Positions 1 to 17,935 of a DNA stretch of 64,000 nucleotides are shown piece by piece. Position numbers and translations under genes: made by a program. Every line of letters starts with the position of its first letter. Position 1 is the first letter of the stretch. The DNA comes from Thermoplasmata archaeon (GTDB lineage: Archaea > Thermoplasmatota > Thermoplasmata > GCA-020350865). The notes beneath the pieces were generated by a model. The model had not been told where the DNA came from. It ran no database searches and saw only the letters and a list, made by a program, of their open reading frames with translations. The DNA lies in assembly GCA_020348445.1 (NCBI GenBank), contig CP070751.1, positions 3,745,002 through 3,809,001 on the forward strand, given 5' to 3'.

Positions 1-1011
1 GGGCGATTGGATGGTGTAACCGAAGTTCTTCCGAATCCGGATCTTTTTGTAATAATGTATATAAAGAAAGAAGCGGTATTGTCGTCACAGATAGAAGGAA
101 CTCAAGCCTCATTAATGGACGTGTTGGAATTTGAAGCCAAGGCCCTTGACCCTTTTAAATCTAGGGATGTAAGGGAAGTTGTAAATTATATAAAAGGAAT
201 AAATTACGGTTTGGATCAAATAAAACAGGATAAGAATATCAGTATTTCCATGATCAGGAAAATACATGCTTATCTTCTTGAGGATACGAGAGGTGGAGAA
301 AGGGATTCGGGAAATTTAAGGAATATACAAAATTGGATAGGGCCGCCTGGTTGTGATATCTCAGAGGCCATATTCATCCCTCCTGAGATAAAAGATATGA
401 AGATCGCTTTGAAAGATCTTGAGGAATTCATAAAAAAAGATTATGAGTTACCACCATTGATTAAAGCTGGATTGGTCCATTCCCAATTTGAGACCATTCA
501 CCCATTCATTGATGGCAATGGAAGGATAGGCAGACTTCTTATAACCCTTATATTGACACAGAGTGGCTATCTATCCCGACCGCTTCTATATCCTTCTTAT
601 TATTTCAAACAAAATCGGGCAGAATACTATGATAGACTCCAGGCTGTTCGGGATATGGGAGAATGGGAATCGTGGTTGGTTTTCTTCCTAAATGGGATGT
701 ATAAAGCATCAACAGAAGCGATAAAAACTTCCATGAAGATACTTGAATTAAGAAAAAGTCAACAGGAGGTGATCACTGAAAAATTGGGTAAAAAGAGTGG
801 TTCGGCCCTGAGATTATTTGATGAACTCTATAATAATCCCTTGGTAACAGTAAATTCTATTGCTAAGATAACCGGCCTTTCCTATCCCAATTCCAATCGC
901 TTAGCATCAATATTTGAGGAGCTGGATATTTTAAAGGAGATCACAGGTCAAAAGCGGAATAGAATATTCGAGTTTATTAAATATATGGATATCTTGAATG
1001 AAGGAATATAG
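1..1011 (+). CDS. Fic family protein (5'-truncated by window edge), with C-terminal HTH-like region
   Basis: Canonical Fic motif HPFIDGNGRIGR; N-terminal KEAVLSSQIEG motif; frame open from base 1 (GRLDGV...). Confidence 0.92.
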   Translation, partial: GRLDGVTEVLPNPDLFVIMYIKKEAVLSSQIEGTQASLMDVLEFEAKALDPFKSRDVREVVNYIKGINYGLDQIKQDKNISISMIRKIHAYLLEDTRGGERDSGNLRNIQNWIGPPGCDISEAIFIPPEIKDMKIALKDLEEFIKKDYELPPLIKAGLVHSQFETIHPFIDGNGRIGRLLITLILTQSGYLSRPLLYPSYYFKQNRAEYYDRLQAVRDMGEWESWLVFFLNGMYKASTEAIKTSMKILELRKSQQEVITEKLGKKSGSALRLFDELYNNPLVTVNSIAKITGLSYPNSNRLASIFEELDILKEITGQKRNRIFEFIKYMDILNEGI

Positions 1012-1040: not shown

Positions 1041-1306
1041 GACAATCCTGTGCTGCTTTTTAGCGTGCTGAGGAAGAAGGGGGACGGCTTCACCGCAGGC
1101 ACAAAGACAGGTTTGGTGGAGGAAGAAGGTAAGAGCAAAAGACGCAGGCCTCCGTTAAGAAAGGAGCAATCCGAAAGAACAGAGAGGCAAAACCTTTATC
1201 CTCTTAGAGAGATAATGGTTTTAGGGGTAGGGCTTAGAAATGGGATATTGGCAATACCAAACCCCATTTCCAGGTCAAAGGCCATTTTTCAAAAGAAGAA
1301 AGGGAG
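1041..1306 (+). repeat. Intergenic structured repeat, copy A (left end, core hairpin, second hairpin)
   Basis: GACAATCC left end, GACGCAGGCCTC, GGAGCAATCC, AAAACCTTTATCCTC-loop-GAGATAATGGTTTT, GGGCTTAGAAATGGG...CCCATTTCC. Confidence 0.85.
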
Positions 1307-1343
1307 AAGTTTATGTATACAAACCATCAATAATTAAAAACAT

Positions 1344-2915
1344 TTGGAATTTGGTAAGAAAGATGCATCAAGTATATATTTAAATAATATCATTTTACCT
1401 TTAAAATCCCAATCTAGGTGGAAAAGCTTGAAAAAAGTTCTCTTGACGGCGGACAAATCTCTATTGAACGATTTTCATCTAAAACAGAATCTATCCCAAT
1501 TTTTTTATGGTTCTGGTGATTTATTGAACAATTGGATATTCAAACTTTTAGTTCCCGACCCAAAGATAGTAAATGGAATTACAAGATTTGCACCATATCC
1601 TTTAAGGAAAATCGAAGCAAAAATGATGGAACTAGGGTATGATGTTTCGACCATTAGTTACAAACAGATTCCCAGCTCCATCAAAGATGCCAAAGTATTG
1701 GGAATTCATACAGTAAATCCATTGGGGTTGGCATTCAATACTTATTTAAGAAACTTTATAAATGAGAGATACGAAAAACCGAGATATTATTTTTCTCAAT
1801 TGATTAAAAATAAACACATAAAAGAAGCAAAGAAAGATGGGTTAAAGATCATCGTTGGAGGCCAAGGTGCTTGGCAATTTGAATCCAATCAAGATTTACT
1901 TGACGAATATGGAATAGACTGTGTAATTATTGGTGAAAGCGAATTAGTAATTGATGAGATTCTATCTGCCGCTTTAAAAGATAAAGATATTCCCAGATTT
2001 GTAAGAGTTAAAAAAAATCAGATACCAAATATAGACCAGATATCAGATATTAAATATCCTTCTGTTTCTGGGTGTATCGAAGTAGGACGTGGATGTCCTA
2101 GACAGTGTAAATTTTGTGAAGTCACTCAGTCAAAATTGAGATGGTATCCATTATCAAAGATAGAAAATGAGCTTATTATTAACAATCAAGCTGATTTAAA
2201 GTATGGTATTTTACATGCAGAGGACATTTTTCTTTATGGTCAACAATCTGTAGTACCCAATAAAAAAAAGATACTAGATTTAATTCGATTATCTAAAAAA
2301 TATCATCGTAATATCCATTTTACACATGTTTCAATTGCTTCAAGTATAGCGATCCCGGATTTAATTGAACATGTAATGGAATTAATACTTCAAGACCAAG
2401 ATTATATGTTGGTCGAAGTTGGAATTGAAACAGGATCAGATAAACTGATAAAAATGAATATGGCCTCAAAAATGAAACCTTTTAAAGCAGAAATGTGGAG
2501 CGATTTAACTATTGAGGCGTTGGGAAAAATGCATGATAATATGATAATCCCTTTTTGTTCGATTATATTTGGATTACCAAATGAAACAATCCAAGATAAA
2601 GAAAAAACATTGGAATTGATTGAAAATCTAAGCGATTATAGATGTATATTCTTTCCTGTAAATTTTATACCCTTGGGAAAATTAAAAAACCACGATCGTC
2701 AATCGAAGAATCTCGAAGATTTAGACGACATTGAAAAAGAAACATGTTTCCGTTGCATAGATCATGATCTTAAATGGATTAAAAAAACAAAAAGATATTT
2801 TTATAAAGAATCGACGTACCATTTATTTATGGAAATATTTTCGAAGATATGGATTTTTCAATACAAAAGAAATGTATCTAAATATAAGAAGAAGTTAAAG
2901 ATTAATACAAAATAA
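1344..2915 (+). CDS. Radical SAM protein with B12-binding-like N-terminal region
   Basis: GRGCPRQCKFC (CxxxCxxC); IIVGGQGA motif upstream; TTG start about 30 nt after TTTATGTA (TATA-like), no RBS, consistent with a leaderless mRNA. Confidence 0.8.
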   Translation: MEFGKKDASSIYLNNIILPLKSQSRWKSLKKVLLTADKSLLNDFHLKQNLSQFFYGSGDLLNNWIFKLLVPDPKIVNGITRFAPYPLRKIEAKMMELGYDVSTISYKQIPSSIKDAKVLGIHTVNPLGLAFNTYLRNFINERYEKPRYYFSQLIKNKHIKEAKKDGLKIIVGGQGAWQFESNQDLLDEYGIDCVIIGESELVIDEILSAALKDKDIPRFVRVKKNQIPNIDQISDIKYPSVSGCIEVGRGCPRQCKFCEVTQSKLRWYPLSKIENELIINNQADLKYGILHAEDIFLYGQQSVVPNKKKILDLIRLSKKYHRNIHFTHVSIASSIAIPDLIEHVMELILQDQDYMLVEVGIETGSDKLIKMNMASKMKPFKAEMWSDLTIEALGKMHDNMIIPFCSIIFGLPNETIQDKEKTLELIENLSDYRCIFFPVNFIPLGKLKNHDRQSKNLEDLDDIEKETCFRCIDHDLKWIKKTKRYFYKESTYHLFMEIFSKIWIFQYKRNVSKYKKKLKINTK

Positions 2916-2984
2916 TACGACACTTAATAATGAAAGAAGAAATAGATTGGCGGACATGATTTAGCAATGAATAGATTACAAGCA

Positions 2985-3170
2985 GAAAGGACGGAGTACC
3001 AAAACCTTTATCCTCGTAAGGGCTACCAAAGGTGCCCAAAATTTACCCCAGGGCTTTTTAAGCAACAATGGGAAAGATTTAAAAAGGGCTGAGAGGGATA
3101 ATGGTTTTAGGGGTGGGGCTTAAGGAGACACCCGAAATAAAGCGAGGCTGGAGGCAAAAATAATAGTGAC
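2985..3170 (+). repeat. Intergenic structured repeat, copy B (core hairpin with ~70-nt loop insertion)
   Basis: AAAACCTTTATCCTC at 3001 and GAGAGGGATAATGGTTTTAGGGGTGGGGCTT at 3091, separated by extra sequence. Confidence 0.8.
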
Positions 3171-3244
3171 AATTGGAGAAACGTGCCAAAATAATAAAAT
3201 AATTGTTATTAATTGATGAAATCAAAGGAAAGAAGTTGAGAAAG

Positions 3245-5224
3245 ATGAGAAAAATCGTGGGGTTGATGTTATTTGGATTACTTGTTTTAAGTATGGCAGT
3301 TGGAGTCTTTACTATATTACCAAAAATGGTGAGTGCATACACTCCACACGACCCGATATATATAGATGGAAATGTTGATTTTACCGAAGAAAATGGCGTT
3401 TTAGAGGGATCTGGAACTGAAATCGAACCATACATCATCGAAGGATGGGAGATAGATGCCAAAGCCTCTGAGGGGATAAAAATAAAAAACACTACTGTGC
3501 ATTTTATAATAAAAAATTGTATGGTCCATGGAGGTAATACCTATAATGGTATTTCTTTCTATAATGTTACAAATGGTAAGATAGAGAGTTCAACTTGCCA
3601 TAATAACTCAAATGGGATCTATTTTGAAAAATCCTCAAATAATATGATAAGTGCTTCCAATATTCATAACAATTCCAATGCTGGTATATACCTCGCAGGA
3701 TGTTCGAATAATAACGTTGAACTCTCTACAATAGTGGACAATGACTATGGTGTTTATATCGTCAAGTTATTTGTTGACATTGAGCCCATAGGGTACTATG
3801 TTTCCTCATCAAATAATCGACTTGAGGGCTCCGATTTAATAAATAACTCACTGGGTATCCGACTCTATGATGATGTCTCCGGCACCTATATAAACAATAC
3901 TTATGTGTTTCAGGGTGATATTGGTATTGATATTTCTTCCTCTACAGGGACCGTGATTAGCAATTCAACGATATCTTTTTGTGATAAGGGGATTCATTTT
4001 TGGAGTTCATCTTATAATAGGGTGATAAATAGTAGCATTTCATGGAACGCGGAATACGGCATTAAATTTGGGTATACATCGTCAGATAATCTAGTTACTT
4101 ACTCTAATATATCACACAATAATGAGGGTATACTCATTGGAAGTAATAATGATCAGAATCCCACCGATATCTTTATCCATCACAATAATTTCATAAATAA
4201 TACTGTTCAGGCAGGTGACTGGGATATCGGCACCCACAATCATTGGGATGATGGGGCTGAAGGAAATTATTGGTCTGATTACAAAGGTAATGATACAAAC
4301 GATGATGGTGTTGGCGATGAACCCTATAACATAACACTCTTAATTATATATGGGGGTTCTAATCCACCTTGTAATAAGGATTACTTTCCATTGATTAATC
4401 CTATACAAATAGCGATAGTTAGTAATGAGCTTCCAATTCCTGATTTTGATTACTCACCCAAAACACCAACCGATTTAGAATTTGTATACTTTACTGATCT
4501 ATCTTATGACACTGATGGTACGATAGTATCAAGGCACTGGGAATTTGGCGATGGGAACATGAGCAACGATCAAGATCCATATCATAAATACATGGATAAT
4601 GGCACTTACACAATTACTTTGACTGTTACAGACAATACCGATGCAACCAATTCAAATTCCAAGGAGGTAATAGTAACCAACGTGGGACCAAACGCAACCG
4701 CTGGTTGTAATAAAACAAATATTACTGTGGGTGACGTGGTCTCATTTACAGGAACAGGATATGACAACGATGGTAGTATAACCAGTTGGTTTTGGGACTT
4801 TGGCGATGGCAATAATTCACAATTACAAAATCCAACCCATGTATATTCCATATCTGGCACATATACCGTGTCACTAACGGTTACAGATAACGATGATGCC
4901 ACAGCAACCGCTATACTAACGATTGTAGTTAATGAAGATACTGGTGGAGCAGCGTCGGATGATCAAGATGGTAACATCCTTGGCCTCGCCCCTTTTATTT
5001 TCTTTGTCCTGATCGCTGCAATCATAGTTATTTGCACTGTTGTACTTATCCTAAAAAAACAAGCTTTGTTGAGAGGTGATGATAAGCCGATCAAGGCTAA
5101 CGAGAAGAGAAAAAAAAGAAGGCAAAAAGATAATAAAAAAGAATGGACAAAGTGTCCAGAGTGCAAAGTACGCCTTAAAAAGAATAACCTTAAAAGCCAT
5201 ATCAAAAAAGTCCATAAAAAATAA
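3245..5224 (+). CDS. Secreted/surface protein: CASH/NosD beta-helix, two PKD domains, TM anchor, basic tail with C2H2 zinc-finger motif
   Basis: Signal-like N-terminus from ATG 3245; repeated NN.I.NN/GI motifs, GNYWSDY; PKD motifs HWEFGDG and FWDFGDG; hydrophobic LAPFIFFVLIAAIIVICTVVLIL; terminal CPECKVRLKKNNLKSHIKKVH. Confidence 0.8.
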   Translation: MRKIVGLMLFGLLVLSMAVGVFTILPKMVSAYTPHDPIYIDGNVDFTEENGVLEGSGTEIEPYIIEGWEIDAKASEGIKIKNTTVHFIIKNCMVHGGNTYNGISFYNVTNGKIESSTCHNNSNGIYFEKSSNNMISASNIHNNSNAGIYLAGCSNNNVELSTIVDNDYGVYIVKLFVDIEPIGYYVSSSNNRLEGSDLINNSLGIRLYDDVSGTYINNTYVFQGDIGIDISSSTGTVISNSTISFCDKGIHFWSSSYNRVINSSISWNAEYGIKFGYTSSDNLVTYSNISHNNEGILIGSNNDQNPTDIFIHHNNFINNTVQAGDWDIGTHNHWDDGAEGNYWSDYKGNDTNDDGVGDEPYNITLLIIYGGSNPPCNKDYFPLINPIQIAIVSNELPIPDFDYSPKTPTDLEFVYFTDLSYDTDGTIVSRHWEFGDGNMSNDQDPYHKYMDNGTYTITLTVTDNTDATNSNSKEVIVTNVGPNATAGCNKTNITVGDVVSFTGTGYDNDGSITSWFWDFGDGNNSQLQNPTHVYSISGTYTVSLTVTDNDDATATAILTIVVNEDTGGAASDDQDGNILGLAPFIFFVLIAAIIVICTVVLILKKQALLRGDDKPIKANEKRKKRRQKDNKKEWTKCPECKVRLKKNNLKSHIKKVHKK

Positions 5225-5235
5225 AATGATAATAG

Positions 5236-5352
5236 ACTACGATCTCTAGCGTGTCGAGCATAAGGGATAAGGCTTAGAAATGGCATATTGATGTATAGCT
5301 GAATGTCATTTCCGAGGCCTGCGTCCGTCTAAAAGTAAAAGGAGGGGATTGT
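5236..5352 (+). repeat. Intergenic structured repeat, copy C (mainly right half)
   Basis: AGCGTGTCGAG, GGCTTAGAAATGGCAT...ATGTCATTTCCGAGGCCTGCGTCCG...AAAAGGAGGGGATTGTC. Confidence 0.85.
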
Positions 5353-5401
5353 CCGAAAAATATATTGTGAAAAGCGATATATTGACTATAAAGTGAATTA
5401 A

Positions 5402-5926
5402 ATGATTGACAAAAAACTAAAGCTAATCGAACCATCTATTGATTATCAAAAAGAATATACACAATTTTTAGAAGATTTTAAATCCACTAAAGAGAAATTA
5501 GTACCTTTTATTTTGGAATATGATACATCTAAATTCCCGGGTTTTATTCAGAAGCTGAAGGATTCCTCCATGGGAATCGGCCTCCCTGAAGGATGGATTC
5601 CACATACGACCTTCTGGTTGGTTGATCCGAATAAAAATGTGATTGGTGTTGTAAATATCCGACATAAAATAAATGATAAATTAGAAAGAATTGGCGGCCA
5701 TATTGGGTTTAGTATTGCCCCATCGTATCGAAGGAAGGGGTATGGTAAAATAATACTTAAATTAGCATTAGACAAAGTTAGTAAATTTGGTTTAAAACAA
5801 GTATTACTGACCTGTGATAAAGAAAATATTGGCTCAGTTAAAGTAATCAAATATAACAATGGAGTATTAGACTCAGAAGACATTGTTGATGGAATGAGAA
5901 TCCAAAGATATTGGATAAAAATATGA
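5402..5926 (+). CDS. GNAT family N-acetyltransferase
   Basis: GGHIGFSIAPSYRRKGYGKIIL acetyl-CoA motif; VLLTCDKENIGSVKVI. Confidence 0.88.
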   Translation: MIDKKLKLIEPSIDYQKEYTQFLEDFKSTKEKLVPFILEYDTSKFPGFIQKLKDSSMGIGLPEGWIPHTTFWLVDPNKNVIGVVNIRHKINDKLERIGGHIGFSIAPSYRRKGYGKIILKLALDKVSKFGLKQVLLTCDKENIGSVKVIKYNNGVLDSEDIVDGMRIQRYWIKI

Positions 5927-5960
5927 GAATTGGTTGGCCTCGGTGAGGTTGAAAAATAAT

Positions 5961-6056
5961 ACAATCCCCTCCTTCAAAAAAGCGTGTTGAGGAAGAAGGT
6001 AGGAAGGTCCCAAGGAAGGCCGAATTATCTGATCCTGGAACCATACAACAAAGCAT
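5961..6056 (+). repeat. Intergenic structured repeat, copy D (left half)
   Basis: ACAATCCCCTCCTTCAAAAAAGCGTGTTGAGGAAGAAGG; GGAAGGCCGAA is shared with copy J. Confidence 0.75.
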
Positions 6057-6078
6057 ATATTTCACAACTGCATCTCAA

Positions 6079-6633
6079 ATGACTATGCAACAAAGTGATG
6101 ACCCGGGATCAGAGGAGGTAACGTGGCAGGAAAACGTATTTCCTGAGAAAATCGAAAGAACTAACAGAAAGTTCCTTTTGTTTGCTCCTCCCATTGCATT
6201 TGTCGTCCTCTTCACCGTATCGGTACTGATACAGATGGTTGTTCCACACCCCTTATTTCCTTTCTTGGATCTTAGTTTGGCTAGTATAGGAGCGCTGATT
6301 TTATTTTTTGGACCTTATACTGGCTCAAGAAAATTGATAGAAAGAATAGGTTTGACAGAAAATGGTTTTTATGTTGTTGATAGGGCTAAAAGAAAATGGT
6401 TCATCGGCTGGACAGACATATTTTCGATTGAAAAAAGTTATAACGAGATTTACGTTTTGCATTACTATAAAAAGGGAGAAGGGGTTGCATTTGCTCCCTT
6501 GGCTCTTATGGGATACATCGCTTTGGATTTAAAGGACCAATGGGAGGATCAATTGAAGGTTCTTGAGGAAACAACGATTAAGGAGTTAAAGGAAAATGAA
6601 AAGAGGAAAGCGCATATATCAGAGCTGGCTTAA
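6079..6633 (+). CDS. Hypothetical membrane protein (2 TM, then a soluble domain)
   Basis: 184-aa ORF with two hydrophobic segments; no recognised motif. Confidence 0.6.
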   Translation: MTMQQSDDPGSEEVTWQENVFPEKIERTNRKFLLFAPPIAFVVLFTVSVLIQMVVPHPLFPFLDLSLASIGALILFFGPYTGSRKLIERIGLTENGFYVVDRAKRKWFIGWTDIFSIEKSYNEIYVLHYYKKGEGVAFAPLALMGYIALDLKDQWEDQLKVLEETTIKELKENEKRKAHISELA

Positions 6634-7057
6634 GGAGCGAAAGAAAACTCAAACCTTTTCAAGACGATTTATTGCATTTTGTTGGATCGTATGTCCCGTC
6701 CTCGGAATTATCTCTATGCAAGGCAGCGGTTATTCATTTGTCACCATATTTTTTTCCTTGATGGCACTTGTTTATTTGACGGTAGGGACAATATTCGTTC
6801 TATATGGAAGTAAGGAGCTTTGTATCTATGAAAACGGCATCTTGATCCCATACGGTTTAACTAGGAAATTTTTAAAATTCTCGGTTATATCGAAAATAAA
6901 ACTTAACACCACCTCCCAGTCCTTTGTGCCGGAAATTGATATCGTCTTGGATGAGAGAGATGTGGTTAAATATAAAAAAACATTAATCCACGAGTGGAAA
7001 GCTTTCTACAAAACGATGTTGTTTGGGGTGGCTGACAAAGTACAGGTTGTGGAGTAA
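6596..7057 (+). CDS. Hypothetical membrane protein (2 TM, then a soluble domain)
   Basis: 153-aa ORF, AAGGAG upstream, two hydrophobic segments; overlaps the previous ORF by 38 nt. Confidence 0.6.
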   Translation: MKRGKRIYQSWLKERKKTQTFSRRFIAFCWIVCPVLGIISMQGSGYSFVTIFFSLMALVYLTVGTIFVLYGSKELCIYENGILIPYGLTRKFLKFSVISKIKLNTTSQSFVPEIDIVLDERDVVKYKKTLIHEWKAFYKTMLFGVADKVQVVE

Positions 7058-7060
7058 TTA

Positions 7061-7158
7061 CGAGGGTTTTTTAGGTGGGGCTTAGAAATAGCATGTGGAC
7101 AAAATCCTAACGTCATTTCCGAGGCCTGCGTACGTTTGAAAGTAAAAGGAGGGGATTG
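7061..7158 (+). repeat. Intergenic structured repeat, copy E (right half)
   Basis: GGTTTTTTAGGTGGGGCTTAGAAATAGCAT...GTCATTTCCGAGGCCTGCGTACG...AAAAGGAGGGGATTGGC. Confidence 0.85.
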
Positions 7159-7326
7159 GCGATCTAATATGTCAGAGAAGTATATAGAATTATATTATAC
7201 TATTATACTAACCTCCAAAAATAAATTGCCCTAATTGTCATAAGATAAAATACAATTGTAGAAAAATACTTATACATTAAGGTAGATATAAGTACTAGCG
7301 ATTTAAATAGAAAGGAGGAATTTCAT

Positions 7327-8172
7327 ATAATTTACTCCGAATATAATCCAGATAAAACTACCAATATCTCCGATCAAATTAGATATCTTGGAATACATAT
7401 TCTTGGCTTGATCACACTTTGCCTTTTAATAATCATTCCCTGGCATCTCTTCCTTAAACCACTTTATGAAGGGCCATATTTGTGGTTTTATGTGCTCAGC
7501 TTTTCAATAACGACCTATCTTGTCGGTGTTGAAGCTGAAAGTACAGGTAATCTTGATACAATTGGAGGGTTTTATATGTTATTGCTAATGACTATATCAT
7601 GGAGTTGTATTATAATAAGCGGTATTATCGAGCTCTGGATTTTGCAGTGGTTTGGAGTTGCATTGACTTTTCTAACCGTTGGTATAGGACTCATCATCAT
7701 TCAAAAGCTTTCCAATATTGGATTATATTCTGAAATTCCTACTATTTTCATAGCTGCATCTCGCTATAGCTATGGGGATAAAGGGGAATTTTCTAACATT
7801 CCTTTTGAAGCGGAGATAGGAAAATACAATATGGACGATATTAAAAAGTACACTAAAATTCTTTTAAAATATGGGATTGCATTAAGGGTTACAGAAGATG
7901 CAGATTCTATCACGATTTATATACGAAAACCTTCCAATCTAGTGCGAACGATTCTTTTACCTGGATCAGTGCTTTTTGGACAATCTTGGATTAAAATAAG
8001 ATCTGATGGACACATTATTATATCAGTATCAAAAAATGCTTATGAATACTTGGACTCACCAGGCTTATATAATGAATTATGTAAGGCAATTTCTCGTATT
8101 ATCGACGAGTCCATAAATCAATATTATGCAGGCGATGAGCAAGGAGCTTTAAGAAAATTAGGCATTAAATAA
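7327..8172 (+). CDS. Hypothetical multi-pass membrane protein (probable ATA start)
   Basis: Four hydrophobic segments; frame is open upstream of TTG 7408 to ATA 7327, which lies 8 nt after GGAGG (7314-7318). Confidence 0.6.
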   Translation: MIYSEYNPDKTTNISDQIRYLGIHILGLITLCLLIIIPWHLFLKPLYEGPYLWFYVLSFSITTYLVGVEAESTGNLDTIGGFYMLLLMTISWSCIIISGIIELWILQWFGVALTFLTVGIGLIIIQKLSNIGLYSEIPTIFIAASRYSYGDKGEFSNIPFEAEIGKYNMDDIKKYTKILLKYGIALRVTEDADSITIYIRKPSNLVRTILLPGSVLFGQSWIKIRSDGHIIISVSKNAYEYLDSPGLYNELCKAISRIIDESINQYYAGDEQGALRKLGIK

Positions 8173-8177
8173 AATGA

Positions 8178-8330
8178 GACAATCCCTTCCTTTAAAAAAG
8201 CGTTCCAAGGCAAGAGCAAAGGACGCAGGACTACATGGAAGTTAGATTTGTGAGCAATCGGTACACTGAGGGAGAGGCAAAACCTTTATCCTTATAGAGA
8301 GATAATGGTTTTAGGGGCGGGGCTTGCGAG
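8178..8330 (+). repeat. Intergenic structured repeat, copy F (left end and core hairpin)
   Basis: GACAATCCCTTCCTTTAAAAAAGCG, GGACGCAGG, GCAAAACCTTTATCCTT-ATAG-AGAGATAATGGTTTTAGGGGCGGGGCTT. Confidence 0.85.
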
Positions 8331-8363
8331 GAAAGCGATTGAACTAAATGGAGATGTGCCCGG

Positions 8364-8798
8364 ATGAACATAGTAATAGAATTATATAACAATAGTAAGC
8401 ACCGTGAGCAAGTAATTGAATTATGGGATTCGGTCTTTGCTCCCAAAGATGCAAGAAATAGACCACAGTTATCGATTGATAAAAAATTATCAGTCATGGA
8501 CGATTTGTTTTTTATCGCAAGGGATGGCGATCAAGTAATTGGAACGGTCATGGCTGGATATGATGGCCATCGTGGATGGATATATTCAATGGCAGTAATT
8601 CCTGAAAGACGAAATTTGAACGTTGGAACCACATTGTTGAAACACGCAGAAAATGAATTAAAGAAGCTTGGCTGTGTAAAAATCAACTTACAGATCTATA
8701 AAGATAATGATAGTGTAAAAAATTTCTACTTAAAAAATGGATATTCTATAGAAGAAAGAATTAGTATGGGAAAAGAAATCAAGGATAACATCCGATGA
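8364..8798 (+). CDS. GNAT family acetyltransferase (YpeA-like)
   Basis: GTVMAGYDGHRGWIYSMAV and GCVKINLQI motifs. Confidence 0.9.
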   Translation: MNIVIELYNNSKHREQVIELWDSVFAPKDARNRPQLSIDKKLSVMDDLFFIARDGDQVIGTVMAGYDGHRGWIYSMAVIPERRNLNVGTTLLKHAENELKKLGCVKINLQIYKDNDSVKNFYLKNGYSIEERISMGKEIKDNIR

Positions 8799-8800
8799 AA

Positions 8801-8998
8801 AAATCCCTGTTCCCAGAACAGGTAGGGGAAGGCTTCACTAGTCCGATAATAGATTCAGATAGGAGTAGCAATCCATGGTGAGCAAAATCTTTATCTCATA
8901 GAGGGATAATGGTTTTATGGATGGGATTTAGAAATGGCATGTGGACATTAACCCAACGCCATTTCCGAGGCTTGCATCCGTTTAAAAGGAGGGGATTG
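8801..8998 (+). repeat. Intergenic structured repeat, copy G (near complete)
   Basis: AAATCCC left end; GCAAAATCTTTATCTC...GGGATAATGGTTTT; GAAATGGC...GCCATTTCCGAGGCTTGC; AAAAGGAGGGGATTG right end. Confidence 0.85.
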
Positions 8999-9008
8999 TT
9001 GATTTTCT

Positions 9009-10346
9009 TTATTTTCCAGGGTCAATCACTCTAATCTCATCACTGTATCCCTCAAACGACGTTCCATCTGCTAATTCTCCAGTAACCTTCAGATTATAGG
9101 TACCAGGCGACAGCATATCCTCTACTTCGCTTCTTTCAAACTTGACCATGAGAGTATCGCCTTGGATGTCACCCCATTCAGCTGGAATTGTATCTTCAAG
9201 TAAAACACTATTAACGTCTATATCGTTAACATCATAACCAGTGGGTAAATCGATATAACAGGTAATCCAATTTCCCTTTGATTTGAGATTAAGAGTATCT
9301 GGATCAATATCAACAATAGCTTCAATTGTATCATTATAAGAAGATGATGGGTACCTAAGGATTGAACTTCCTCCTACAATCAGAGCATATTTGCCATCAG
9401 GTCTCCAATCGACATCCCTAAGAAAGTCGATGGTATCAGTTTTCAATTCTATTAAACCTTCTTCATCATATTTGTAAACTCGCCCATAACCTCCAGCAAT
9501 TAAAGCATAACTTCCATCAGGGTTCCAATCGACATCAAATAGTGGAACCTGCATCCATACCCCTGGTGATGCTTCATAAGATATATTGCTATATAATTCT
9601 GTCAATGAAATACCGTCATATTTCCAAATAGAGCCTCCGCTTACCAGGAGTGCATAACTGCCATCTGGTTTCCAAGACACACCAAAAAATTGTTTTGCTG
9701 GTGTATACAAATTTGAAAATGTTGTTCCGTCATATTTTATAACTTTTTTCCCTACTATTAAGGCGTAGCTACCATCGGGTTTCCATTCAACATCAGAAAG
9801 TACGTTATTTACTTTATGAGCAATATGGAAATTAGACCCATTATATGTAATTACCAGCCCCCGTGGGTCCATATGATACCGATCATATAATCCGACAATT
9901 ACAGCTTGACTTCCATCAGGTTTCCAATCAATTCCAGTAAAAGCGTAGAATCTATAAAGGGTTCTATTATCAATATGTGTGTAATTGAAGGTTGTTCCAT
10001 TATAAACGTAAATCCTCATATCGCTTCCGAGTAGAGCATAACTACCATCCGGATTCCATTGACTACTGTAAAACGAATACATTTGATATTTTGCCCATAC
10101 CTGTGTATAATCTTGACCATCGTATGTATATGAAGTTTCACCAGTCATACCCAATAAGGCTAGGCTGCTATTCGGGCTCCAAGATACACTGTATAAGACC
10201 GGGGGGCATGGATGAGATAAACTCTCGACCTCCAATTCTGATTCAGGTGAATTACTCATTACATTCTCGTTTCCAAAGGAAAAAAAAACAAAAGATAGCC
10301 CCAATATCAATGAAATTATGCCATGAATTTTTGCCAACATTATCAA
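9009..10346 (-). CDS. Secreted beta-propeller (WD40-like) protein with conserved 101-aa C-terminal module
   Basis: Repeated V.WKPDGSYALIVG blades; N-terminal signal-like hydrophobic stretch; C-terminal IDIDPDTLNLKSKG...RVIDPGK. Confidence 0.8.
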   Translation of the reverse strand: MIMLAKIHGIISLILGLSFVFFSFGNENVMSNSPESELEVESLSHPCPPVLYSVSWSPNSSLALLGMTGETSYTYDGQDYTQVWAKYQMYSFYSSQWNPDGSYALLGSDMRIYVYNGTTFNYTHIDNRTLYRFYAFTGIDWKPDGSQAVIVGLYDRYHMDPRGLVITYNGSNFHIAHKVNNVLSDVEWKPDGSYALIVGKKVIKYDGTTFSNLYTPAKQFFGVSWKPDGSYALLVSGGSIWKYDGISLTELYSNISYEASPGVWMQVPLFDVDWNPDGSYALIAGGYGRVYKYDEEGLIELKTDTIDFLRDVDWRPDGKYALIVGGSSILRYPSSSYNDTIEAIVDIDPDTLNLKSKGNWITCYIDLPTGYDVNDIDVNSVLLEDTIPAEWGDIQGDTLMVKFERSEVEDMLSPGTYNLKVTGELADGTSFEGYSDEIRVIDPGK

Positions 10347-10470
10347 CCTCCCGGATTTTTATGATTTAATTAATATATCTTTGTAATACGATTTTTAAAT
10401 TATCCTTTTTAGATATAAATATATTGGCACAATCATCAAAATGTCAGCGATTATAATCTATTATAGCCTA

Positions 10471-10688
10471 GAGAATCCCCTCCTTAAGAAAAAGCTTGCA
10501 GAAGAAAGGGGCCCCTTCACTATATTGATGATGGATTCAGGGAGGAACAATCCGAAACTTCGGAGTAGCAAAACCTTTATCTTCGCATGACAATGATGGT
10601 TTTGGGGCTTGGGCTTAGAAATGGCATATCGCGGATTACAAATGACATTTCCAAGGCATTTCCGTTAAACAACAAAATGAGGGGATTA
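10471..10688 (+). repeat. Intergenic structured repeat, copy H (complete, inverted ends)
   Basis: GAATCCCCTCCTT left end and TGAGGGGATT right end; core GCAAAACCTTTATC...ATGATGGTTTT; GAAATGGCAT...ATGACATTTCC. Confidence 0.85.
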
Positions 10689-10689
10689 A

Positions 10690-11898
10690 ATGAAACACAA
10701 TATCTTTAAGATAATGATGATCAACCTGTTAGTAATTACATTTGTTATTAACAGTGGTTGCATATCAGAAGATGATGACAAAGATGAGGGTAGTGTTCCA
10801 GATAATAGCGAAGAAGCGCTTTTCCCTGAAGTCGTTCCCGCAACAGATGGTCCTCTTGCCGTAAATGAAATCGATACTTGGGCCTATGTGATCCAGGATG
10901 TAGAGGGAAACGCAGATCTTTTGGAGCGGTCCCGCTATGGGATGCTTGTAATAGAACCCACCCGGACAGATTTTTCAGATGAATCTTCTCGTTCATATAA
11001 AACAAAGGATTTGGTAACCCGGCTCAAAGCCTCAGCCGGTAATAATGAGGTCAACCGTAAGCTTGTCATTGCCTATATCGACATAGGTCAGGCTGAAGAT
11101 TGGCGGTGGTATTGGGAGTGGTCTGTAGATAGCGACTGGGACCCTTCTGAAACAAGCAAGCAAAGCGACTGGCCTTCGTGGATAATTACTCACGACCCTG
11201 ATTGGATAGGATGTTTTCCTGTGTTATATTGGCATGAAGACTGGAAGAATATTGTCATCAATGGTGATTTTGTTTGGAATGATGATGTTGTGGAGGTTCC
11301 TTCCGGGGATGAATATGGGGGTGAAGGTTACAACAGCATCCTGGATGAGGTTATCATAGACGGGTTTGACGGCATTTATCTGGATTGGGTGGAAGCCTTC
11401 AGTGATGAATCTGTTGTTACAGCTGCGGAAGCAGCGGGTATCGACCCTGTCGAGACCATGTTCGATTTCATAGAAGAAATGAGAGATTATGGGCGCACTC
11501 GATTTCAGGAGATGGGTAGAGATCCCAACGAGTGGGTATTAATACAACAAAATGCACCAGATCTTGCTGAGAGTAACGATCCAAGGAAATTTACAGTCAT
11601 TGATGGCATTGCCCAAGAAGGTGTGTGGTGGGAAGGAACTGGTGATTCGGGTTGGGATGATCCCGAGGGTTATGATGTAAGTACTAAAGAGATATTGGGT
11701 GCCGATTGGTACAATGATGTTCTAAATGTATGGCTTCCGGCATACAAGGATGCGGGAATACCCGTATTTGCCTGTGAATATGCATTGGAAAACGCAGAAG
11801 ATGTCTATGAAAACTTGGCACCCGATGCTGGTTTCATCCCTTACTGCACAAGACGGTCACTTTCAAAATTAACAACTACTCCACCAAGTTTTGAATAG
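10690..11898 (+). CDS. GH114-like / endo-alpha-1,4-polygalactosaminidase-like TIM-barrel lipoprotein
   Basis: Lipobox-like SGC after a hydrophobic leader; IAYIDIGQAEDWRWYW and GFDGIYLDWV motifs of the MJ1477/TM1410-type family. Confidence 0.72.
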   Translation: MKHNIFKIMMINLLVITFVINSGCISEDDDKDEGSVPDNSEEALFPEVVPATDGPLAVNEIDTWAYVIQDVEGNADLLERSRYGMLVIEPTRTDFSDESSRSYKTKDLVTRLKASAGNNEVNRKLVIAYIDIGQAEDWRWYWEWSVDSDWDPSETSKQSDWPSWIITHDPDWIGCFPVLYWHEDWKNIVINGDFVWNDDVVEVPSGDEYGGEGYNSILDEVIIDGFDGIYLDWVEAFSDESVVTAAEAAGIDPVETMFDFIEEMRDYGRTRFQEMGRDPNEWVLIQQNAPDLAESNDPRKFTVIDGIAQEGVWWEGTGDSGWDDPEGYDVSTKEILGADWYNDVLNVWLPAYKDAGIPVFACEYALENAEDVYENLAPDAGFIPYCTRRSLSKLTTTPPSFE

Positions 11899-11928
11899 GT
11901 TCGAAGTTGAATTTACTTTGAGCAGTTT

Positions 11929-11976
11929 GTCATTTCCAAGGTGTGCATCCATCTATAAGCAAAAGGAGGGGATTGG
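11929..11976 (+). repeat. Intergenic structured repeat, copy I (right end)
   Basis: GTCATTTCCAAGGTGTGCATCC...AAAAGGAGGGGATTGGC. Confidence 0.75.
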
Positions 11977-11985
11977 CGATATTTT

Positions 11986-13338
11986 TCATTTTCCAGGATC
12001 AATGACCCTTATCTCATCGCTATATCCCTCAAACGATGTTCCATCTGCTAATTCCCCAGTAACCTTCAAATTGTAAGTCCCGGGTGATAACATATCCTCT
12101 ACTTCGCTTCTGTCGAATTTGACCATAAGCGTATCGCCTTGGATGTCACCCCATTTGGCTGGTAATGTATCCTCGAGTATCACAGTGCTGATATCTATAT
12201 CGTTGACATCATAACCATTTGGGAGGCCAATGTAACATGTGATCCATTTGCCCTTTGATTTAAGATTGAGCGTGTCAGGATCGATATCAATAAATGAAGT
12301 AATGATTGAGGCCCAAGGTCGCATAAGAGGATAATAATCATAATATCTATCGGGGTGAGGAATCAGAGTATCACCTATTCCATCACCTGCAATTGAATGT
12401 TTTCCTGTTCCGCTACCGTCATCTTCACCTGTATAATCTGACCAGTAATTGCCTTCTAAAAGAACAGGATGATACCAATTGTTTCTACTTCTCGAAGGAT
12501 CATCAACTCGGGCATTAAAGAAATTATTATGATATATGGTATTTCCCCTAGAACCATACCCTGTACATATACCCCAATCTCGACCTGAAATTGTATTATT
12601 CATTATTATATTATTATTGGAACGATCCCATAGATTAATATCAATGTCATTTGAGAGGATAATATCGGTGATTAAGTTGTAATTTGAATGATAAATCAAA
12701 GAAATACCTACAAAATTATCTATTACAGTATTATAGGCAACAGTATTGTTATTACTATAAAAATATATATCGATACCATAGTAATTATTGATTACTAGAT
12801 TATATGTTATAATGTTATTGTTAGAATATTGTAAAATAATTCCACATTTATAATTCCAGGCCGAGTAATTCAAAGAGATGATGTTGTTTGTAATAATATT
12901 ATATCTCGAATAGTACGCATAAATACCATAATTGCTGTCTAATAGCATGTTACTATAAATGTTGCATCTATCTGAATTTATTTGAATTCCTGCGTCACCA
13001 GTTAAAGAGCCACTTTTTTTGATAGTGAAACCAGAGACATTTACCCAATCTGCATTAATATTAATAACATCCCCATTTCCACCACCATCAATAACGGTAG
13101 TGATATTGTCTTCTCCTTGTAATGTAATAGTTTTATTTATGAATATATTCTCATGGTAATTTCCTGCCCTCACATATACGATGTCGCCATGATTTGCTGC
13201 ATCTATTGCCTCTTGAATCGTGAAATAATCATCAGGAACGACGATTAATGTTGCACTAACTATTGGGGTATATATTACAATAAAGAAGGATACAATCAAC
13301 AAAGCACATATTACAAAGCTTATTGCTTTTTTTCGCAT
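11986..13338 (-). CDS. Secreted CASH/NosD parallel beta-helix protein with the same 101-aa C-terminal module as 9009-10346
   Basis: ATG 13338 behind GGAGGGGG; TIQEAIDAANHGD, repeated NNIITYN motifs, GNYWSDY; C-terminal IDIDPDTLNLKSKG module. Confidence 0.82.
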   Translation of the reverse strand: MRKKAISFVICALLIVSFFIVIYTPIVSATLIVVPDDYFTIQEAIDAANHGDIVYVRAGNYHENIFINKTITLQGEDNITTVIDGGGNGDVININADWVNVSGFTIKKSGSLTGDAGIQINSDRCNIYSNMLLDSNYGIYAYYSRYNIITNNIISLNYSAWNYKCGIILQYSNNNIITYNLVINNYYGIDIYFYSNNNTVAYNTVIDNFVGISLIYHSNYNLITDIILSNDIDINLWDRSNNNIIMNNTISGRDWGICTGYGSRGNTIYHNNFFNARVDDPSRSRNNWYHPVLLEGNYWSDYTGEDDGSGTGKHSIAGDGIGDTLIPHPDRYYDYYPLMRPWASIITSFIDIDPDTLNLKSKGKWITCYIGLPNGYDVNDIDISTVILEDTLPAKWGDIQGDTLMVKFDRSEVEDMLSPGTYNLKVTGELADGTSFEGYSDEIRVIDPGK

Positions 13339-13398
13339 TCTTACTCCCCCTCCATGAAAAATAAATGTATCTAGAGACATATAAAACCTTCTTTAAAA

Positions 13399-13545
13399 GA
13401 CAATCCGCTCCAGCGTGTCGAGTATGTGTGGGAAGGCCGAAACACACAAACCTCTATAAAGCAAGGAGCAATCCGTGAGCACAGAGTAGTAAAACCTAAA
13501 CCCCCGTAGAGTGATAATGGTTTTAGGACTTAAAGCCGAGGAGTG
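13399..13545 (+). repeat. Intergenic structured repeat, copy J (left end and core hairpin)
   Basis: GACAATCCG, AGCGTGTCGAG, GGAGCAATCCG, AAAACC...GTGATAATGGTTTTAGG. Confidence 0.8.
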
Positions 13546-13587
13546 AAAAAAAGATAAGGTCACTGTATCCGATAATAATGGGCTTAA

Positions 13588-15057
13588 TTAAACACCTTTC
13601 CCATATAGTTTGATCATAGATGGTTCTTTAACAGATAATAACTTTATTAATGGTCTAAGAAATTGATGTCTTTGATAAAAATAATGCACCCCGGTTTTTA
13701 GGATGAATCCTTTAATGGATTTTCTTCTATATCTGTCTTTTACGATAAAAGATGTAAGTAAATATTTTCTTAAGTGAAATCGGAATATTTTATCTAGTAT
13801 ATCACTTACAAATTCACTATGGTCATACTCTTCGATGTCTATCACAGGATGAACATAATTCCAATTTTGGTAGTCCCAATCTTTTATCCATGCCTTGTTT
13901 TTCTTATAATATTGTGTCCATGGATAGGGGGTAAAAATATATGGCAATACCAAATCGGGATCCCATTTTTGAACAGTTTTAAATTTCATATTTAACGAAT
14001 TTTTTGTTTCATGTCTATCTCCTACAAGTAAGTTTACGATAGTCATGATATCGTGCTTTTTTAAGTAAGCGATGGCCTGTTTATTTTCATATACTGTTGT
14101 TCCTTTTCTTAATTCGTTTAGAAGATGTTGATCAGTTGCTTCAACTCCCAAATCAACAGTTACAATTCCAGATTTTTTATACAGGGGTAAATATTCTTTA
14201 TCTCGAACTACATCAGTTACCCTTAAGTTTAAAGTCATATGTATTTGGAGATTGCGATTCACTACATCTTTTAGCATCTGAAGCCATAATTTCTGGTCAA
14301 AAGACGGATTTTCATCAGCAAAGAAGAAATGGGTCACACCGAATTTTTTGTTTAATAGTTCCAATTCATCAACAAATAGTTTTGGATTCCTTGTCCTGTA
14401 CTTTTTCCAGAAATTCCATTGACCGCAAAACTCACAAAAAAATGGACATCCTCTTGAAAAACCAACCACAGCCATCTTTTCATTTGTGACTTTGTTTTTA
14501 TAAATTTCCCAGTCTTCTATTAGCTCCCAAGCTGCACGCACAGAATCTAGATCTTTTATGGGCTCTCTGTCAGGATTCACTACATAACCTTTTTCATTTC
14601 TCCAAACCAACCCATTGATTTTCTCCATGGAACGATTTCCATTTATAGCCTTTAACAATTCCTTGATAGTTATCTCACCTTCTCCTCTTATTATATAATC
14701 AACCTCTGGATGTTCCTTCATGATCTGATGAAATGTGAATGTTGGATGTATTCCCCCTAAAACCGTTATGATCTTACTGTTAACTTTCTTTGCATTTTTT
14801 AAGATAGCAAGTGATTTTTTAATGGTGGCAGTAGATGCACTACTGCCAGTGCACACCATATCAGGTCTTCCTTTTTTTAATATCGAAATAATATCCCTTA
14901 TTGAAAGGTTCTTTTTGGAAGCATCGATTAACTTCACATTATGATTATCATCAATCAATGCACCGCCGACATACAAAAGCCCCAAGGGAGTCATTGTGCC
15001 AACAGGAATCTCAGCCCCACCACAATGATAATTAGGATTTATAAGCAAGATTCGGAT
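13588..15057 (-). CDS. B12-binding radical SAM protein, BchE-like (probable ATC start)
   Basis: RILLINPNYHCGGAEI N-terminus and SRGCPFFCEFCGQWNFW (CxxxCxxC) resemble BchE as I recall it; GGTGAT 4 nt before ATC 15057. Confidence 0.75.
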   Translation of the reverse strand: MRILLINPNYHCGGAEIPVGTMTPLGLLYVGGALIDDNHNVKLIDASKKNLSIRDIISILKKGRPDMVCTGSSASTATIKKSLAILKNAKKVNSKIITVLGGIHPTFTFHQIMKEHPEVDYIIRGEGEITIKELLKAINGNRSMEKINGLVWRNEKGYVVNPDREPIKDLDSVRAAWELIEDWEIYKNKVTNEKMAVVGFSRGCPFFCEFCGQWNFWKKYRTRNPKLFVDELELLNKKFGVTHFFFADENPSFDQKLWLQMLKDVVNRNLQIHMTLNLRVTDVVRDKEYLPLYKKSGIVTVDLGVEATDQHLLNELRKGTTVYENKQAIAYLKKHDIMTIVNLLVGDRHETKNSLNMKFKTVQKWDPDLVLPYIFTPYPWTQYYKKNKAWIKDWDYQNWNYVHPVIDIEEYDHSEFVSDILDKIFRFHLRKYLLTSFIVKDRYRRKSIKGFILKTGVHYFYQRHQFLRPLIKLLSVKEPSMIKLYGKGV

Positions 15058-15139
15058 TTATATCACCTTTATTCCTTATAGAAATAATATATACTATAAT
15101 TAAGAATTTCTAAAAGTCTCTTTGAAAGTTCCGAATATA

Positions 15140-15320
15140 GGGCAGATGGCCTGCGTATAAGGGAGGAATATAGAAAGTGCAGATTCCGCAGGCCTTCGTG
15201 AAGTGAGGACCAGTTCGAGAGGATTGATTGGCAAAAACTTTATCTTCGTAGGGAGATATTGGTACAAGATGCGGGGCTGTTAATGCCATTCCATAATATA
15301 AGCGAGGTCGTAGGTATGCA
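15140..15320 (+). repeat. Intergenic structured repeat, copy K (degenerate)
   Basis: GGCCTGCG/CGCAGGCC inverted pair; GCAAAAACTTTATCTTC-GTAG-GGAGATATTGGT. Confidence 0.6.
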
Positions 15321-15357: not shown

Positions 15358-15750
15358 GTGGATATTAAGGATCTTAGAAGAATGAATCTTGTTGGGACAA
15401 TTTTTTTTGCTCTTTTCGGGAGTATCGGTGTAGCATCTATTTTTAATAGTTATTACAGTATTCAAAGACAATTTCCAAAATATGACTTTTCTGGAACTTT
15501 AAACCTTGCAATAATTTTACTTTGCATAGTAGTAATTTTTACAATTCTTTTATATAGATTTACAGTGATTGGTTTAGATCGAGGGAACTATAAAGGTGCC
15601 AAATTTTTCACATTGATAGGGATTCTTGTTGGATGGATAGGTTGGATCATTCCTTCAATTGTATTTATAAAATCCTTTCTCTCATTCGATGAAGCGATCG
15701 GACGTATTAAGAAAATTGAAAGCCCCAAAATGTCATTGAGAGATAAATAA
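15358..15750 (+). CDS. Hypothetical membrane protein (3-4 TM)
   Basis: Hydrophobic segments; C-terminal half homologous to ORF 21427-21792. Confidence 0.65.
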   Translation: MDIKDLRRMNLVGTIFFALFGSIGVASIFNSYYSIQRQFPKYDFSGTLNLAIILLCIVVIFTILLYRFTVIGLDRGNYKGAKFFTLIGILVGWIGWIIPSIVFIKSFLSFDEAIGRIKKIESPKMSLRDK

Positions 15751-15835
15751 AGAAGATCTTTAAAAATAAAGTTAGGGTAAGACGGAGGTGGAAGGGCGAA
15801 AAAGATAAAATACATTAAAGCGTTGAATAAGAGTA

Positions 15836-15868
15836 TTAAGCCAAGTTCATGGCTTAAAGGCGAAGGTG
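15836..15868 (+). repeat. Short hairpin repeat (second motif family), copy 1
   Basis: Perfect TTAAGCCA-agttca-TGGCTTAA hairpin followed by AGGCGAAGGT. Confidence 0.55.
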
Positions 15869-15889
15869 ATTAACAGTTGAGGGATTCAC

Positions 15890-16120
15890 ATGGGAAATTT
15901 GTTACATTTATTCCATCATCATAAACGAAAAAAATACGAAACGGAGAAGATGAAAGAATCGACAAAAGAGCAATATGATAAGGAATTGAAGAATCAACCG
16001 AAAAAATTTGATTATTATTGCCCATCTTGTCTTTTTCAAACAGATACATATTCTAAAATCTGTCCTAAATGTAACAAAGGAAAATTACAACAAACAACCG
16101 GGAATGTTACTTCAAAATAA
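15890..16120 (+). CDS. Small zinc-ribbon protein
   Basis: CPSC...CPKC; GAGGG upstream of ATG. Confidence 0.6.
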   Translation: MGNLLHLFHHHKRKKYETEKMKESTKEQYDKELKNQPKKFDYYCPSCLFQTDTYSKICPKCNKGKLQQTTGNVTSK

Positions 16121-16272
16121 TGTATAATTAATACACTATGTAAAATCGGAATAATGAGGAAATAATGAAAACTGTTAAAGTACTTAAATACAATAAAGGT
16201 GTGTAGGGAAGGGGTTAAAGCACGAGGCAAAAAGCTTCAAATATATCTGGAACTTAGGAGGAAAATGAAATA

Positions 16273-16554
16273 ATGGCAAGAAAATGCCCCCACTGTAAAG
16301 CCCGACTAGGGACATTAGCCACTTCATGTTGGAAATGTAAATCCCCCGTAGATTATTACAAATCTCAATCAAAAGAAGTTGATCATAAAGAGATAGAAGA
16401 GCCTAGAAATATCGGGAAACTAGTTATTGTTCCATATGTAATGGTCACGATTTTGGCAATTATTTTAGTATTGATTATTGCTGTTGGGGGGGGAATTATA
16501 TCTACTTATTCTTCTAGTATATATGGGCATAATAGTATTCGGATCATTATTTAA
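16273..16554 (+). CDS. Zinc-ribbon membrane protein, N-terminal part (frameshifted at G8 tract)
   Basis: GGAGG RBS; CPHC...CWKC then a TM segment; G8 run at 16486-16493. Confidence 0.55.
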   Translation: MARKCPHCKARLGTLATSCWKCKSPVDYYKSQSKEVDHKEIEEPRNIGKLVIVPYVMVTILAIILVLIIAVGGGIISTYSSSIYGHNSIRIII

Positions 16555-16918: not shown

Positions 16919-17049
16919 TTATAAATATGAATTGCCATAAGGCATACTTTTTTTGCCCTTAGTATTTATATGCTGCACTGACATAAGCAGTGGGGGCTCC
17001 CAGGGCAATCCCACAAAAGGATAATAAGTATCCAATATACCATTTAATT

Positions 17050-17929: not shown

Positions 17930-17935
17930 GGTGCT

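Follow-up and report, generated by a model that had tools for sequence, protein, structure and literature searches.

Why should copies of one foldable repeat, all lying on the same strand, fill gap after gap between genes of different kinds in an archaeal chromosome? This question is raised by a 64,000-nucleotide (nt) stretch of an uncultured sediment archaeon, a member of the Thermoplasmata (contig CP070751.1, positions 3,745,002 to 3,809,001 of the forward strand; the whole stretch is hereafter called the window), in which a preliminary description, made from the sequence alone, had located eleven such elements (A to K) and had proposed either a repeat-delimited platform, unlike integrons, for the capture and shuffling of genes or an element resembling a miniature inverted-repeat transposable element (MITE). 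Among systems that stockpile and shuffle single genes at one chromosomal address, only integrons are, to our knowledge, well understood, and they depend on one tyrosine recombinase family. Our analysis supports the first of the two proposals by means of the following features: (i) the elements are clustered; (ii) the content of the locus varies among relatives; and (iii) cassettes break at a short core within the element. We favor the reading, with a probability of about 0.6, that the array is an integron-like cassette platform, built from different parts and run in trans by transposases of the Y1 (HUH) type. The source genome (G000) is a metagenome assembly of 354 contigs joined via N runs, is ~82% complete, and was compared with four congeners (G001 to G004).

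Left and right modules assort freely at a short core

Direct repeats, nhmmer (E-values from 1e-61 to 1e-3) and a covariance model (28-136 bits) all place the eleven sites in one repeat family on the + strand, as first described. Elements are 150-360 nt in size and consist, in 5' to 3' order, of m1 (GACAATCCCCTCCTT), m2 (AGCGTGYYGAG), a G-rich run, m3 (GGACGCAGGCCTCC), m4 (GGAGCAATCC), the hairpin m5 (GGCAAAACCTTTATC ... GATAATGGTTTTAGG), a second G-rich run ending in GGGGCTT, the hairpin m6 (GAAATGGC ... GCCATTTC), m7, which pairs with m3, and m8, which pairs with m1. The sites had been called copies or half-copies; all eleven are real, but the incomplete ones are defined subsets of modules (left, centre or right only) and not random halves, with only A, G and H being near-complete.

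Each element is a composite junction: its left module, a hairpin with a G-rich run that closes on CTT, is joined to one of two right modules. These are R (m6-m7-m8), i.e., a hairpin with two arms that pair back to the left module, and a short conserved tail (A.GGCGAGG; in its long form, GGCGACGACCG ... AGCGAGGC..GAGGCA) that is followed by unique DNA. Anchoring on m5 across all loci, we always found a G-rich run ending in CTT, followed by R or by the tail. Anchoring on R, we found that ...CTTA always precedes it and that the part further upstream varies (m5, an optional m5b, C2 or unrelated DNA). C2 is a different hairpin module that ends in GAACGAGGTCGTCACTT, and the core-bearing left types can be written as m5-GGGGCTTA and C2-GTCACTTA. 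At the junctions, the CTT(A/G) core lies 9-22 nt beyond the hairpin. With loose matches removed by eye, left type m5 was joined to R in 13 cases and to the tail in at least 20, m5b in three cases each, C2 to R once and to the tail 10 times, and the flank of the Y1 transposase gene (tnpA) to the tail three times and to R never. Seven of the eight possible combinations of four left and two right types were thus observed, which is the pattern expected of breakage and rejoining at a single short core. These results demonstrate free assortment between the two sides of the junction at a core of 4-5 nt, CTT(A/G), where we infer that cleavage occurs.

The ends of a shared cassette coincide with this core. 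A RelE/ParE-type toxin-antitoxin cassette is present in G000 (contig 339) and in G002, with 89% identity over 577 nt; the homology begins exactly at CTTA and runs to the toxin stop codon, and the cassette is preceded by a C2 module in one genome and by an m5 module in the other. The crossover thus falls between the central hairpin and the right arm, not at the 3' end of the element, and this position, in the middle of the fold, divides each site between two adjoining cassettes. Copy C and G003:C17 hint at a possible further crossover site (S1) behind m1 and m2, although its motif is inconstant (GGCGCC in some copies).

It had further been suggested that a full copy could fold into one long hairpin by means of two inverted pairs. 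Both the end pair (GACAATCCCCTCCTT / AAGGAGGGGATTG) and the inner pair (GGACGCAGGCCTC / GAGGCCTGCGTCC) are present, and they form the two outer helices of a full copy, which folds into a closed and multi-branched structure (363 nt, -68 kcal/mol, z = -5.6). The idea that these long inverted pairs are 'private' repeats of individual cassettes was rejected, as the sequences are family-wide in this array. When 49 distinct copies were aligned to the covariance model, 93% of the cells in the m5 and m6 helices held standard pairs and 13 of the 21 pairs showed changes on both sides; none of 500 shuffles reached the observed pairing and covariation, and slid controls were 37-60% paired. Because the alignment was fitted to the model and most of the diversity lies within one genus, we regard this as moderate, not strong, evidence that the hairpins are maintained through compensatory changes. 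A covariance-model search of 151 Thermoplasmata genomes detected the element in this genus only, plus one match in another family.

Two modules resemble translation signals. m1 (AATCCCCTCCTT; e.g., window 1041-1055) and the 3' end of the 16S rRNA (GATCACCTCCT; G000:C1 ~692,110, - strand) differ by one mismatch in ten bases, and m8 (AAGGAGGGGAT; e.g., window 5340-5352) is a near-perfect Shine-Dalgarno sequence, so that the outer helix mimics the pairing of a Shine-Dalgarno with its anti-Shine-Dalgarno sequence. In copy H, m8 sits 4 nt 5' of the start codon of a gene for a GH114-like glycoside hydrolase; in most copies, this module is 50-250 nt away from any start codon.

These resemblances, the position of m8 in copy H, the covariation of the hairpins and the presence of optional peripheral modules, which are typical of large RNAs, could together be explained if the element were a cis-acting structured non-coding RNA, involved in transcript processing, stability or translation control, and the array a set of genes sharing a regulator. 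We consider this improbable, because the orientation of the elements is fixed regardless of the strand of the neighbouring genes, the element matches no Rfam family, and the Shine-Dalgarno-like module is mostly remote from start codons, and because module swapping at the core, the empty site and the link to Y1 genes (both described below) would be left unexplained. Hardly credible is the notion that the elements are remnants of group II introns. It stems from a full-length match of copy A to Rfam group-II-D1D4-3, whose 24.5 bits fall short of the gathering score of 32 and whose alignment includes many non-canonical pairs. Neither the better-preserved copies U1 and U2 nor 56 kb of other arrays gave such a match, and no reverse transcriptase or domain V/VI match was found. 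The group II identity was rejected on the grounds that better copies and other arrays failed to repeat the match of copy A; over the whole window, no Rfam family reached its gathering score.

One variable locus, and Y1 transposases at sister arrays

The elements lie where they were first reported, and the array is longer than the 14 kb then given to it: it extends over ~36 kb, from 14,241 nt upstream of base 1 to ~21,830, such that the window holds part of it and the A-K stretch represents its central 15 kb. Both ends of the array are inside the 141-kb contig that contains the window. The whole array is housed in a single intergenic gap, from an aminotransferase gene to hypCAD, with glutamine synthetase, GatE and the aminotransferase on its left flank and hypC, hypA and hypD on its right (Pfam assignments). 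In G001, the aminotransferase gene lies ~110 nt from hypC, which represents an empty site that lacks the entire 36-kb block, including its genes. Because the two genes are adjacent there, we interpret the ~36-kb block as an insertion into one intergenic gap. In G002, G003 and G004, the gap beside the aminotransferase gene is filled with different genes and the same element.

Genome-wide, nhmmer detected 38 copies of the element in at least five clusters, each with a single orientation. More specifically, 20 of the 38 form one + strand run (G000:3,731,498-3,760,264), and the remainder are a few singletons and shorter runs, each likewise of one orientation, on contigs 19, 262, 338 and 339. Copies scattered in both orientations amid a conserved gene order had been named in the preliminary description as the mark of an ordinary repeat; in this genome and its relatives, we found one-orientation clusters and a locus whose content differs.

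These data bear on the reading that the elements are non-autonomous repeats of the IS200 type, or similar to MITEs, which simply pile up in a variable island whose genes turn over by ordinary homologous recombination between repeats. The full copies bear 15-nt inverted ends, and most copies are devoid of one end. Such inverted ends, the many partial or mosaic copies, a cassette gene for a BNR protein that has no adjoining elements in G001, and the lack of an enzyme gene in the array of the window would suit such repeats. We nevertheless judge this reading unlikely. Copies are found nearly always in arrays and are not dispersed; the empty site lacks the whole 36 kb, genes included; and left modules that are unrelated to one another change over to a common set of right modules at a single 4-nt core, at which cassette homology also starts. 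This switching counts against homologous recombination, which would need common sequence on both sides.

A profile search with PF01797 (Y1_Tnp) pointed to five places in the genome. Two Y1 genes on contig 338 are divergently oriented, with a hydantoinase operon on one side and, at the contig end, an element copy on the other. One protein of this pair, P0003, gives a full Y1_Tnp match (111 bits) with both the HUH motif and the catalytic Tyr. The other, its paralog P0002, is C-terminally truncated, without the catalytic Tyr and with one His lost, in both G000 (L020:7531-7875) and G001 (L015:6116-6466), the decay of its HUH motif differing between the two (HVR and RVH). It is intact in G003 (L011:6440-6859), where an intact paralog of the P0002 type occurs twice in one array. 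More generally, Y1 paralogs of relatives are located inside arrays: 11 of ~13 strong matches in G003 are on element-bearing contigs, and those of G004 are on array contigs as well. Within arrays, they and the elements mostly lie on opposite strands.

The 3' flank of P0003 carries an AT-rich palindrome, then GTACGTGACTT, and then the long tail, i.e., the core and right module of the arrays. Five other Thermoplasmata families also have members of the P0003 clade, with one or two copies per genome, and at five loci from four of these families, other repeat arrays (0.6-1.5 kb spacing) lie within 1-6 kb of a gene of this clade. A site composed of ACGT-GACTT(A/G)(A/G) and a GACGACCG tail is kept next to tnpA across families, with ~45 nt of this enzyme-proximal site being nearly the same in families f1 and f23. 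That enzyme and site have been kept together in this way is our chief argument for an action of the Y1 proteins on the core.

An HUH-type enzyme outside the window, as had been envisaged, is thus represented by Y1 genes in sister arrays and in the arrays of relatives, none of which flanks the present array. As for the recombinase that, it had been noted, could lie upstream of base 1, only an IS110-family transposase gene (DEDD_Tnp_IS110 and Transposase_20; L001:16155-17138, 2.9-3.8 kb upstream of base 1) was found there, and this gene is itself inserted within one element, between its m2/G-run part and its m3-m4 part. The insertion is reminiscent of IS1111-type insertion sequences, which target integron attC sites.

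Element copies and cassettes of the array

From the left edge of the window, elements and genes succeed one another as follows, with all elements on the + strand and family assignments based on Pfam. A Fic/DOC gene (1..1011, +; Fic_N and Fic), which has an R module just upstream of the window, is followed by element A (1041..1316; nhmmer 1e-61, 135.8 bits), consisting of a left module, m5, the core CTTA at 1233-1236 and a variant right module, R2. A radical SAM gene (1344..2915, +) separates it from element B (2979..3170), which contains m5 with a loop insertion, the core CTTA at 3119-3122 and a long tail. Next are a gene for a surface protein with beta-helix/NosD and PKD domains (3203..5224, +) and element C (5236..5353), where degenerate m1-m2, a G-rich run and the core CTTA (5273-5276) lead directly into R (m6, m7, m8). 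A GNAT acetyltransferase gene (5402..5926, +) precedes element D (5959..6040), which has m1-m2 only, corresponding to the first ~40 nt of a full element, and was detected by motif. Two overlapping open reading frames (ORFs) of 184 and 153 amino acids (aa) (6079..7057, +), without a family match, lie between D and element E (7063..7161), which retains a ~20 nt remnant of m5 and the G-run before the core CTTA (7081-7084) and R. Between E and element F (8177..8340; left module, m5, core CTTG at 8323-8326, short tail variant GCGAGG) is a 254-aa ORF (7408..8172, +), also lacking a family match.

The second GNAT acetyltransferase gene (8364..8798, +) is followed by element G (8801..9003), which has a variant left module, m5, the core TTTA at 8927-8930 and R. 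On the other side of G is a gene for a WD40 surface protein (9009..10346, -), whose conserved C-terminal domain abuts the R module. Element H (10470..10688) is a compact full copy with the core CTTA at 10614-10617; its last module is the Shine-Dalgarno sequence of the next gene, which codes for the GH114-like glycoside hydrolase (10690..11898, +). Element I (11929..11981) corresponds to the 3' part of R only (m6 3' arm, m7, m8) and adjoins a gene for a beta-helix/NosD surface protein (11986..13380, -) that shares its C-terminal domain with the gene at 9009-10346. Element J (13398..13545) comprises a left module, m5, the core ACTTA at 13528-13532 and the tail AAGCCGAGG. It is followed by a gene for a B12-binding radical SAM enzyme (13588..15048, -) and by element K (15140..15320), which has degenerate m3-m5 and a long-tail-like sequence. 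K is the last recognisable element: nhmmer, the covariance model and a motif search found no copies outside A-K in the rest of the window, in agreement with the first account.

Beyond K, a distal block (15358..21830, +) contains small ORFs, a ParE toxin gene (17936-18232) and a gene for a 1035-aa fn3 protein (18362-21469), and it ends ~30 nt 5' of hypC, a boundary given by the empty site of G001. The conserved right flank, hypC-hypA-hypD (21861..23617, +), is the region found next to the aminotransferase gene in G001. At the opposite end, the first gene of the array (170 aa) has no family match. About 17 of the array genes run along the elements and 4 run opposite to them.

The cargo is mutually unrelated. 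Besides Fic, two GNATs, two radical SAM enzymes and the GH114-like hydrolase, it includes surface proteins (BNR, WD40, beta-helix and PKD), toxin modules of the PIN and ParE types, two proteins whose domains resemble TIR effectors, and several ORFs that match no family. The two TIR-like cassette proteins are hit by the PADLOC model for TIR effectors (L001:10885-11946, E = 4e-13; L001:13862-14746, E = 5e-11), which suggests, at the level of sequence similarity, that they may be anti-phage cargo.

The Fic cassette is known from three contexts: in G003 and G001, it is found with 73-81% identity in other surroundings, being preceded by a degenerate R-like remnant and followed by m1-m2 in G003, and lying directly beside a Y1 gene in G001. 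A TATA-like box stands at the start of the homology, and the cassette may thus carry its own promoter. Three - strand genes for WD40, beta-helix and BNR surface proteins have a C-terminal domain of ~100 aa in common. The DNA that codes for this domain runs without a break into the R module and forms with it a 300-nt repeat, D1, of 82% identity (window 8984-9283 and 11961-12260; L001:6587-6909). The same domain follows the aminotransferase gene in G003, and the 5' ends of the three genes, together with the adjoining m1, are also kept in relatives.

Two further observations concern regions outside the array. On contig 333 (G000:C1:3967551-3967634), a lone R module without a left module is preceded by ...TAGTCACTTA, which is also the pre-core sequence of the C2 module; this lone R may be the trace of a single insertion. 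Within the window, the ORF list alone indicates four tandem paralogous gene pairs on the - strand (33693-49829), each coding for a protein of ~1005 aa and then one of ~262 aa.

Comparison with known systems and a possible mechanism

Ghaly et al. reportedly described, in 2022, archaeal integrons and CALINs, the latter being attC clusters without an adjacent integrase. The present array resembles integrons, especially sedentary chromosomal integrons and CALINs, in several respects: it is a long row of one orientation, in which most cassettes hold a single gene and the accessory, toxin-antitoxin and defence-like cargo is unrelated; there is a folded site at every junction; contents vary among close relatives at one fixed locus; some arrays have no adjacent enzyme gene; and the conserved enzyme-proximal site is attI-like in role. 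In view of the one-orientation folded sites, the single-gene cassettes and the toxin-antitoxin modules, and with only ~82% of the genome at hand, the array might be taken for a genuine integron or CALIN, whose attC sites would be unusually long and whose IntI the assembly would have missed. We regard this as very improbable. No IntI-type integrase was found among the array ORFs scanned or in the flanks, and the genome-wide matches to PF00589 are two fragments on small contigs without an element copy. Pairs of the attC core motifs RYYYAAC/GTTRRRY occur at the chance rate (7 in 36 kb, versus 7.3 +/- 3.7 in shuffles), and none of them overlaps an element. The preliminary description was accordingly right in stating that the sites lack clear attC cores and are longer than typical attC, as the modular sites here measure 150-360 nt versus 57-141 bp for attC and have no R''/R' cores. 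Moreover, the crossover is located within the fold, whereas that of integrons is at the 3' end of the folded site, which stays with one cassette. The candidate enzyme also differs from the IntI tyrosine recombinase, being a Y1 HUH transposase with two paralogs, sometimes in several copies inside an array, and the possible promoter of the Fic cassette is another point of difference.

With the IS200/IS605 family (IS608, ISDra2 and the gene-less PATEs), the arrays share a candidate enzyme of the Y1 type with HUH motif and catalytic Tyr (encoded in sister arrays, not in this one), hairpins near the ends whose pairing is conserved, a strict single orientation, and a fixed short joint sequence ~10 nt past the hairpin, the joint itself needing no terminal inverted repeats. 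In contrast to these insertion sequences, the units have cargo genes in place of tnpA/tnpB, are joined end to end, head to tail, instead of being dispersed as self-contained copies, and have left and right hairpins that differ, whereas the left-end and right-end hairpins of IS608 are alike; in addition, two extra long-range helices bridge the joint, and there is neither tnpB nor a guide RNA. Similarly to the REPIN-RAYT system (RAYT, REP-associated tyrosine transposase), several families retain a Y1 clade in low numbers, with one or two genes per genome, beside repeated hairpin elements that are presumably handled in trans. However, repetitive extragenic palindromes (REPs) are 20-40 nt long, number in the hundreds and are spread intergenically, whereas the elements described here are 150-360 nt long, number a few dozen, are arrayed and bound cargo.

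For the cassette platform that we propose, the following steps can be envisaged. The Y1 enzymes would cut single-stranded DNA at CTT(A/G), 9-22 nt past the hairpin, as IS608 TnpA does at its ends. The cassette would then exit as a circle, in which its own left-type end meets its own right-type start, and the long helices m1/m8 and m3/m7 would close the circle junction. Re-entry would take place behind any resident CTT end, and landing there would keep the single orientation and lengthen the row. The present array, which is without a Y1 gene, would be served in trans by the Y1 paralogs of sister arrays and would thus be the counterpart of a CALIN. A broader proposal, which we hold more tentatively and at somewhat less than even odds, is that of a gene-capture platform common to the class Thermoplasmata, analogous but unrelated to integrons, wherein a pair of Y1 HUH enzymes and the enzyme-proximal site (ACGT-GACTT plus tail) would insert and excise promoter-bearing cassettes as folded single strands at the CTT core, giving rise to arrays of tens of kb, some of them far from enzyme genes.

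Several observations weigh against the cassette platform. All genomes examined are fragmentary metagenome assemblies, and in the assembled contigs of two samples (two DNA runs of one study, the only public runs found to contain the stretch, with no RNA run listed), we saw neither an excision product nor a circle junction nor an empty site matching precisely one cassette; the apparent 'joints' in those contigs are cross-matches between repeat copies and speak neither for nor against excision. The 36-kb array has no Y1 gene within or next to it, the nearest ones being on other contigs. The hairpins that flank the core, m5 and m6, are unlike each other, and the numbers of G:T (24) and A:C (19) combinations tell neither the folding strand nor DNA from RNA. 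The 3' elements of the shared toxin-antitoxin cassette differ between the two genomes (a long left module versus a 20-nt remnant), so that the mobile unit is not cleanly defined. Finally, the inserted block continues through the gaps from 15.3 to 21.8 kb, and yet these last 6.5 kb bear no recognisable element.

Full-text searching of the literature found no description of HUH-linked cassette arrays in archaea. If our reading is correct, the arrays would constitute a second platform of independent origin, operating via single-strand HUH chemistry, which would make cassette arrays a convergent solution. They would also provide a new pair of enzyme and site whose short, defined core lends itself to in vitro tests, and they would account for a share of the many accessory genes found in uncultured archaea.

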